From Escherichia coli (GTDB taxonomy: Bacteria; Pseudomonadota; Gammaproteobacteria; Enterobacterales; Enterobacteriaceae), in NCBI RefSeq assembly GCF_003790525.1, contig NZ_CP033635.1: a stretch of DNA of 64,000 bases, one strand, 5' to 3'. The notes below the pieces were generated by a model, which saw only the letters and a program-made list of their open reading frames with translations, searched no databases and was not told where the DNA came from. Position numbers and translations under genes: made by a program. The number at the start of each line of letters is the position of its first letter. Positions within the stretch are counted from its first letter, which is position 1. This document shows positions 23,360 to 24,342 of this stretch, in pieces.

Positions 23360-24319
23360 GTGGCACAACGAGATTATGTACGCCGCAGCCAACCGGCACC
23401 TTCGCGGCGAAAAAAGAGCACCTCACGGAAAAAGCAACGAAATCTGCCTGCGGTTTCTCCCGCTATGGTCGCTATTGCTGCCGCCGTTCTTGTGACCTTT
23501 ATCGGTGGTCTGTACTTCATTACGCATCACAAGAAAGAAGAGTCCGAGACGCTGCAAAGCCAGAAAGTGACCGGAAATGGACTACCACCAAAACCAGAAG
23601 AACGCTGGCGCTACATTAAAGAGCTGGAAAGTCGCCAGCCGGGTGTGCGTGCGCCCACAGAACCTTCTGCCGGTGGTGAAGTGAAAACGCCGGAGCAACT
23701 GACACCAGAACAACGCCAGCTTCTTGAACAAATGCAGGCTGATATGCGCCAGCAGCCAACGCAGCTGGTTGAAGTTCCGTGGAATGAGCAGACGCCGGAA
23801 CAGCGTCAGCAAACGCTACAGCGCCAGCGTCAGGCGCAGCAATTAGCGGAGCAGCAACGCCTGGCTCAGCAGTCACGTACGACTGAACAAAGCTGGCAGC
23901 AGCAGACGCGTACGTCGCAAGCCGCACCGGTACAGGCGCAACCGCGCCAGTCTAAACCGGCTTCTACTCAGCAGCCTTACCAGGATCTGCTGCAAACCCC
24001 TGCGCACACCACCGCGCAGTCGAAGCCGCAGCAAGCTGCGCCAGTTGCTCGTGCCGCTGACGCGCCAAAACCGACGGCGGAGAAAAAAGACGAACGCCGC
24101 TGGATGGTGCAGTGCGGTTCGTTCAGAGGCGCGGAACAGGCAGAGACGGTACGTGCTCAGCTGGCGTTTGAAGGCTTTGACTCAAAAATTACCACCAACA
24201 ATGGCTGGAATCGTGTGGTCATTGGCCCGGTGAAAGGCAAAGAGAACGCAGACAGCACCCTCAATCGGTTGAAGATGGCGGGTCATACAAACTGCATTCG
24301 GCTCGCCGCCGGGGGTTGA
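23360..24319 (+). CDS. ftsN: Cell division protein FtsN (GTG start)
   Basis: 319 aa; N-terminal TM segment, Q-rich linker, C-terminal SPOR-like domain; synteny cytR-ftsN-hslV. Confidence 0.9.
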   Translation: MAQRDYVRRSQPAPSRRKKSTSRKKQRNLPAVSPAMVAIAAAVLVTFIGGLYFITHHKKEESETLQSQKVTGNGLPPKPEERWRYIKELESRQPGVRAPTEPSAGGEVKTPEQLTPEQRQLLEQMQADMRQQPTQLVEVPWNEQTPEQRQQTLQRQRQAQQLAEQQRLAQQSRTTEQSWQQQTRTSQAAPVQAQPRQSKPASTQQPYQDLLQTPAHTTAQSKPQQAAPVARAADAPKPTAEKKDERRWMVQCGSFRGAEQAETVRAQLAFEGFDSKITTNNGWNRVVIGPVKGKENADSTLNRLKMAGHTNCIRLAAGG

Positions 24320-24342
24320 AACCCTCAAAATCCCCCCCATCT
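24316..24342 (+). promoter_or_regulatory. Sigma-32 heat-shock promoter of hslVU
   Basis: TTGAAA (24316-24321), 13-bp spacer, CCCCATCT (24335-24342), matching the sigma-32 -35/-10 consensus; about 70 bp upstream of hslV. Confidence 0.65.

Follow-up and report, generated by a model that had tools for sequence, protein, structure and literature searches.

Introduction

The reference promoter of RpoH (sigma-32) is dnaK P1, and the hslVU promoter shares its layout: a TTGAA(A/G) -35 element and a CCCCATNT -10 element stand on either side of a 13-bp spacer, and transcription starts 8-9 nt past the -10 element. The dnaK P1 scaffold in the cryo-EM structure of the sigma-32 open complex carries TTGAAG and CCCCATTT 13 bp apart, with +1 at the 8th base after the -10 element (PMC10216364).

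That the E. coli hslVU (clpQY) operon has a sigma-32 promoter upstream was described earlier by Chuang et al. 1993 (cited in Lien et al. 2009, PMC2681174) and by Nonaka et al. 2006 (cited in PMC10044804). Using clpQ::lacZ fusions together with northern blots of the native clpQY mRNA, Lien et al. 2009 found that expression requires rpoH and is heat-inducible, and that a C-to-T change in the -10 element, which converts CCCCATCT to CCTCATCT, abolishes heat induction (PMC2681174). In ChIP-chip experiments a sigma-32 peak, SigH_404, spans the ftsN/hslV spacer and is accompanied by an RNA polymerase peak (Cho et al. 2014, PMC3923258 supplement), and ChIP-exo in Salmonella places hslV among the RpoH-bound genes (PMC11548764).

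The leader of the hslVU mRNA has its own described relatives. Deletion of an inverted repeat within it results in less mRNA and faster decay, as measured by rifampicin decay, and leader deletions lower mRNA levels (PMC2681174). Replacement of one arm of the repeat by T's (S-IR) causes the same loss as deletion, and a different sequence that restores the stem (R-IR) restores mRNA levels; the constructs used in these experiments carried extra vector leader yet were still stabilised (PMC2681174). Lien et al. 2009 mention the ompA and papA leaders, which are alike in that a stable 5'-proximal hairpin prolongs mRNA half-life through its structure rather than its sequence. The promoter of hslVU, its dependence on rpoH and the stem-loop that stabilises the mRNA are all already known.

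A first-pass annotation, made from sequence alone, had called a sigma-32 promoter and a 5' UTR hairpin for hslVU in a 64-kb stretch of E. coli DNA (hereafter the window, meaning the whole stretch that was analysed) and had recorded them as a known feature and a positive control. That judgement was sound, the element being both published and represented in Rfam as RF02401. Here we set the locus beside the described systems, and we conclude that positions 24316-24342 are almost certainly the promoter from which RpoH (sigma-32) drives the E. coli hslVU (clpQY) operon. The identification rests on an exact and rare motif, the locus in which it lies, its conservation, covariation in the leader hairpin, the Rfam match, and published genetics and ChIP.

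Results

A consensus sigma-32 promoter sequence upstream of hslVU

The window carries the gene neighbourhood priA-cytR-ftsN-hslV-hslU-menA-rraA of E. coli, as read from the list of open reading frames and from megablast comparison with complete E. coli genomes. A 321-nt segment around the site matches strain SMS-3-5 at 100% identity and, by megablast, is present in 5425 of 5426 E. coli genomes. Promoter and hairpin are identical to those of K-12 MG1655, the single difference in the leader lying at 24392 (T in the window, C in K-12), and neither of the two differs even in a divergent E. coli genome that is 94% identical in the region compared. The locus is the same as that of the K-12 hslVU sigma-32 promoter, seen here in a different strain and with no functional difference. 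The coding sequences and promoter elements at this junction are as follows.

23360-24319, plus strand: ftsN coding sequence (ORF list, RefSeq), whose last codons and stop overlap the -35 element
24316-24321, plus strand: sigma-32 -35 element TTGAAA (direct sequence reading)
24322-24334, plus strand: 13-bp spacer CCCTCAAAATCCC, whose last three C's belong to a C7 run at 24332-24338
24335-24342, plus strand: sigma-32 -10 element CCCCATCT (direct sequence reading)
24400-24404, plus strand: Shine-Dalgarno-like AGGGG upstream of the hslV GTG, conserved in orthologues
24412-24942, plus strand: hslV coding sequence with a GTG start (ORF list, RefSeq), driven by the promoter
24952-26283, plus strand: hslU coding sequence (ORF list, RefSeq), driven by the promoter

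The TTGAAA hexamer, the 13-bp spacer and the -10 element lie at 24316-24342 on the plus strand just as the first-pass annotation had described them, upstream of hslV and 69 nt from its GTG (24412). We defined a sigma-32 promoter as a TTGAAA-like -35 element and a CCCCATNT -10 element 13-14 bp apart, a spacing that becomes 14-15 bp if the -10 element is written CCCATNT. The hslV elements match this definition exactly, with a 13-bp spacer, and hslV-type spacing is the commonest sigma-32 spacing class (PMC10044804). The further claim of the annotation, that the site matches the heat-shock consensus, is supported by the geometry of dnaK P1 as well as by the published rpoH genetics and ChIP. The two promoters are not identical in their surroundings: the hslV -35 element is preceded by G and not by the consensus C, since it lies within the final codons of ftsN, its -10 element runs into the hexamer TATAAT, and the hslV leader has a stable hairpin from +6.

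All that speaks for a chance match without promoter function is that short motifs are frequent in general. With dinucleotide-preserving shuffles (n = 100) as the null model, a match to TTGAAA-N12-16-CCCCATNT appeared in 2 of 100 shuffles, one match each, for a mean expectation of 0.02; the window, searched over its whole 64 kb on both strands, contains a single match. When the spacer was fixed at 13 bp and up to two mismatches were allowed, we found 4 sites against 2.2 expected, and only the one at 24316-24342 is exact. An exact match at the right distance from a known heat-shock operon, kept across Enterobacterales, argues strongly against coincidence, and published mutational data already refute it; the ChIP evidence also speaks against it. 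We regard the probability of a chance match as negligible.

Conservation of the promoter among hslV orthologues

One genome per species was scanned for codons of the HslV N-terminus, an anchor that is independent of the promoter, and the upstream DNA was extracted, which yielded 117 usable loci. TTGAAA-N13-14-CCCCATNT lies within 330 nt of hslV in 97 of these, mostly from Enterobacterales, and a slightly looser form is present in 106 of the 117, indicating that sigma-32 elements are conserved upstream of orthologous hslV genes. The 11 loci lacking the motif are mostly non-Enterobacterales (Luteimonas, several Pasteurellaceae and some MAGs); other Pasteurellaceae retain CTTGAAAC-N13-ACCCATAT. 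Almost all orthologues have a spacer of 13 bp, a few one of 14 bp, and at the orthologous loci the -35 element overlaps the ftsN stop codon in every case. At the -35 position, GGGGTTGAAA or AGGGTTGAAA is found in 85 of 85 distinct orthologues, a set that was chosen for having the motif.

In the window the ftsN stop codon TGA (24317-24319) sits within the -35 hexamer. The context (G/A)GGGTTGAAA is invariant in all 85 distinct orthologous sequences, so that the promoter and the end of the ftsN coding sequence are under joint constraint.

The C7 run at 24332-24338 spans the spacer and the -10 element. Between species, substitutions alter the length of this run and leave the 13-bp spacing as it is. 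Two of its C's have been lost from this promoter in a laboratory E. coli line evolved under heat (PMC10044804).

Several loci depart from the usual arrangement of the leader. ERIC-like repeats are inserted in the hslV leader of four of them (L053, from Kluyvera ascorbata, L088, L106 and L113), where the sigma-32 promoter stays beside ftsN and the GTG is 218-297 nt away; the L113 insertion falls between the -10 element and the hairpin. In four further loci from Hafnia, Serratia sp. and Rouxiella (L044, L050, L058 and L065) the -10 element reads CCCCAATCT, longer by an A, and the leader hairpin has grown to some 50 nt.

Position of the transcription start

The published evidence on where hslV transcription begins, taken together with the geometry of the promoter, points to one base.

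24351, plus strand: most likely transcription start, the A of a conserved CA (454 read, Yersinia start, dnaK P1 geometry)

A 454 5'-end read for E. coli hslV, which is a single read, falls at -61 and corresponds to A24351 (Mendoza-Vargas et al. 2009, PMC2760140 Table S1). This base is the 9th nucleotide after the -10 element and would give a 61-nt leader, and the CA is conserved there in orthologues. The hslV start of Yersinia pseudotuberculosis gives a 68-nt leader beginning AAT (PMC4376681); in Yersinia loci whose -10 element and GTG are 76 nt apart, this start is the 9th base after CCCCATTT, homologous to A24351. Both starts agree with the spacing expected of a sigma-32 promoter, in which transcription begins some 7-9 nt past the -10 element. 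Two other values conflict with this spacing. The start reported by Lien et al. 2009, 71 bp before the GTG, corresponds to 24341 and falls inside CCCCATCT (PMC2681174). The other is a RegulonDB start at -67, or 24345, which follows from a 'promoter distance' of 6 in the Mendoza-Vargas et al. Table S1 (PMC2760140) if the entry is read with the sign convention of the asnS rows in the same table. As -71 is inside the -10 element and -67 only 3 nt beyond it, both are incompatible with open-complex geometry. The first-pass annotation had proposed comparison with published promoter mapping as a check, and the outcome is divided: the -61 and Yersinia starts agree with the promoter, and -71 and -67 are inconsistent with it. 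Our literature search found no further base-resolution start for E. coli hslV, the supplement of Cho et al. 2014 consisting of ChIP peaks.

The alternative is that the published 71-nt leader is correct, with a start at about 24341-24345 and a long extended stem as the functional unit. Lien et al. state the -71 position and report an extended fold of -24.6 kcal/mol (PMC2681174), the inferred RegulonDB-linked value of -67 lies nearby, and in our hands an 80-nt segment from 24341 folds to -27.3 kcal/mol (z = -3.75). The violation of open-complex geometry described above weighs heavily against such a start, and the 454 read and the homologous Yersinia start favour the shorter leader. In addition, only 50-69% of cells are paired in the outer helices of the extended fold, where compensatory changes are few, and 92% in the core hairpin; on this ground we rejected the extended fold as the conserved unit. 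The longer leader is in our view very improbable. A24351, 61 nt ahead of the hslV GTG, is the most likely start of transcription, the exact base in E. coli being an inference from these combined data. The quoted -71 and -67 starts are probably imprecise, off by 6-10 nt, and should probably give way to -61.

An ATG at 24354, just 5' of the hairpin, opens a 29-codon frame (24354-24443) that overlaps the hslV start out of frame. This upstream open reading frame is probably not real, as orthologues and other genera have ACG, CTG or CAG at that position.

A conserved hairpin in the hslVU leader

Downstream of the start the leader contains a strong hairpin, which coincides with the beginning of an Rfam match.

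24356-24377, plus strand: leader hairpin, with a stem formed by 24356-24364 and 24369-24377 and a UUUU loop at 24365-24368
24357-24414, plus strand: match to Rfam RF02401 (ClpQY_promoter cis-regulatory leader), 65.6 bits, E = 9.7e-14

The predicted fold is a 9-bp stem running from G24356 to U24377 and closed by the UUUU loop, with a free energy of -17 kcal/mol and z = -5.7 relative to shuffled sequences. The 5' UTR hairpin of the first-pass annotation (ccccgtacttttgtacgggg, ccccgtac-tttt-gtacgggg) is real, and only its placement has to be amended: it lies at 24357-24376, 14 nt past the -10 element and outside the interval 24316-24342 under which it had been recorded. The core hairpin begins 13-14 nt after the -10 element in almost every enterobacterial locus (82 distinct sequences).

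Covariation was assessed for the 9 base pairs in a MAFFT alignment of 85 distinct sequences. Pairing is maintained in 92.1% of cells, and compensatory changes are found in 8 of the 9 pairs. Cells with a double change number 83, compared with 17.7 in shuffles, and none of 500 shuffles reached the observed value. As a slid control, the 3' partner was moved by 1-3 columns, whereupon pairing was only 36-60%.

The RF02401 match spans model positions 1-57 of 57 and its score is well above the gathering score of 42; together with the compensatory changes, this supports membership of the family. The likeness is full-length, and in both cases a conserved hairpin lies between the promoter and the Shine-Dalgarno sequence. 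Despite its name, the RF02401 model starts at the hairpin and omits the DNA promoter elements. Matches to two other Rfam families in the region, snoZ185 and anti-hemB, are far below threshold and were set aside as chance.

If transcription starts at A24351, the hslVU stem is preceded by about 5 unpaired nucleotides, in which it differs from the ompA and papA leaders. Classic protection by a 5'-terminal (flush) stem-loop tolerates fewer than 5 unpaired 5' nucleotides. The 5 unpaired nucleotides of hslVU exceed what this model allows, which leaves the mechanism of protection uncertain. The hairpin may act by obstructing 5'-end-dependent attack or scanning by RNase E; the 5 unpaired nucleotides, and the stabilisation observed despite extra vector leader, make it seem more likely that RNase E is kept from gaining access or scanning than that the 5' end is simply sequestered.

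The hairpin as a possible terminator

A GC-rich stem-loop located 37 nt past the ftsN stop and followed in E. coli by TTTGT might instead be mainly an intrinsic terminator for ftsN transcripts, possibly also for antisense transcripts, and not an element of the hslVU leader. The opposite strand supplies an observation in keeping with this.

24352, minus strand: 3' end of an antisense RNA (Term-seq; K-12 4122347(+), PMC7815308 supplementary file 1)

This end is 5 nt beyond the hairpin, and the antisense fold is the same palindromic hairpin as read on the minus strand. A Rho-independent terminator consists of a GC-rich stem-loop and an immediate U-tract, and the second part is missing here: only 3 T's follow the stem, so that a terminator scan makes no call, and orthologues lack a T-tract after the stem, for example GGGGCCTGTATT and GGGGCCCCTATT. 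In the Term-seq tables consulted, those of Adams et al. 2021, no 3' end on the sense strand is recorded either for ftsN or for the hslV leader (PMC7815308). Moreover, the hairpin keeps a fixed distance of 13-14 nt from the -10 element, past the hslV start, and its stabilising role on hslV mRNA has been shown experimentally (PMC2681174). With no U-tract, none conserved among orthologues, and no sense-strand 3' end in those tables, we rejected the terminator reading, which we consider highly unlikely, and treat the hairpin as part of the hslVU leader.

A TATAAT hexamer overlapping the sigma-32 -10 element

The last base of the sigma-32 -10 element is also the first base of a hexamer that resembles the -10 element of other sigma factors.

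24342-24347, plus strand: perfect TATAAT, candidate sigma-S/sigma-70 -10 element, overlapping the end of the sigma-32 -10 element

Such a hexamer could belong to a second, overlapping sigma-S or sigma-70 promoter, additional to the sigma-32 promoter and starting 2-4 nt before the hairpin. The hexamer is perfect, and it reads TATAAT or TATACT in 58 of 85 orthologues. The sigma-S holoenzyme gives a SELEX signal at the hslV/ftsN spacer. In the ChIP-chip data the same spacer has a sigma-S peak, SigS_878, whereas a sigma-70 peak is absent (PMC3923258 supplement). Genetic data bear on the question from both sides. The -10 point mutation lowers expression at 30 C by only 1.7-fold, and basal hslVU expression persists in an rpoH mutant (PMC2681174); the mild effect at 30 C and the basal expression together imply that some transcription is independent of sigma-32. 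The 2-bp C-run deletion of the heat-evolved line, moreover, is predicted to strengthen a sigma-70 promoter here (PMC10044804). Yet an rpoS mutation has no effect on clpQY expression, nor has a mutation of the putative sigma-S -10 element, the latter reported as data not shown (PMC2681174).

The sequence around the hexamer argues against a second promoter as well. It has no -35 element at 16-18 bp, the nearest -35-like sequence being the TTGAAA 20 bp away, and a sigma-70 promoter scan found no site at TATAAT and no sigma-70-like promoter on either strand between 23900 and 24800. The -61 start is only 4 nt past the hexamer, and the sigma-32 -10 element fits it better. With no suitably spaced -35 element, and no rpoS effect in the work of Lien et al., we think a sigma-S or sigma-70 promoter at this position unlikely, and we retain the sigma-32 promoter as the source of the -61 start.

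Farther upstream, a 454 5' end at 23963, within ftsN and 449 nt upstream of hslV, was seen 3 times and has a sigma-S-like -10 prediction (PMC2760140 Table S1). This end could represent an internal promoter that reads through ftsN into hslVU.

Discussion

The hslVU locus of the window can be read with the help of the described systems as follows. Sigma-32 holoenzyme recognises TTGAAA and CCCCATCT, 13 bp apart. Expression is basal until heat shock, when sigma-32 accumulates and hslVU transcription increases, as the published genetics and ChIP show. The transcript would begin with 5 unpaired nucleotides, AUUAU, followed by the very stable, GC-rich 9-bp hairpin at 24356-24377, and, as shown by the published experiments in which the stem was disrupted and restored, this hairpin raises the stability of hslVU mRNA.

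The biological novelty of these elements is nil, as promoter, rpoH dependence and stem-loop are published and curated as RF02401. Their value is that of a calibration point: a reading of raw sequence recovered a sigma-32 promoter and a leader hairpin, and independent data confirm both. A modest by-product is the probable correction of the start coordinate to -61, which is A24351 in the window and 4122348 in NC_000913.3.

One further reading of the locus, which we put forward tentatively and think improbable, is that the promoter is dual. The TATAAT/TATACT hexamer, conserved across Enterobacteriaceae, would let sigma-S or sigma-70 start hslVU transcription a few bases ahead of the hairpin when sigma-32 is scarce, and the hairpin would also set the 3' end of the antisense RNA. 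If this were true, one element would serve three transcripts.
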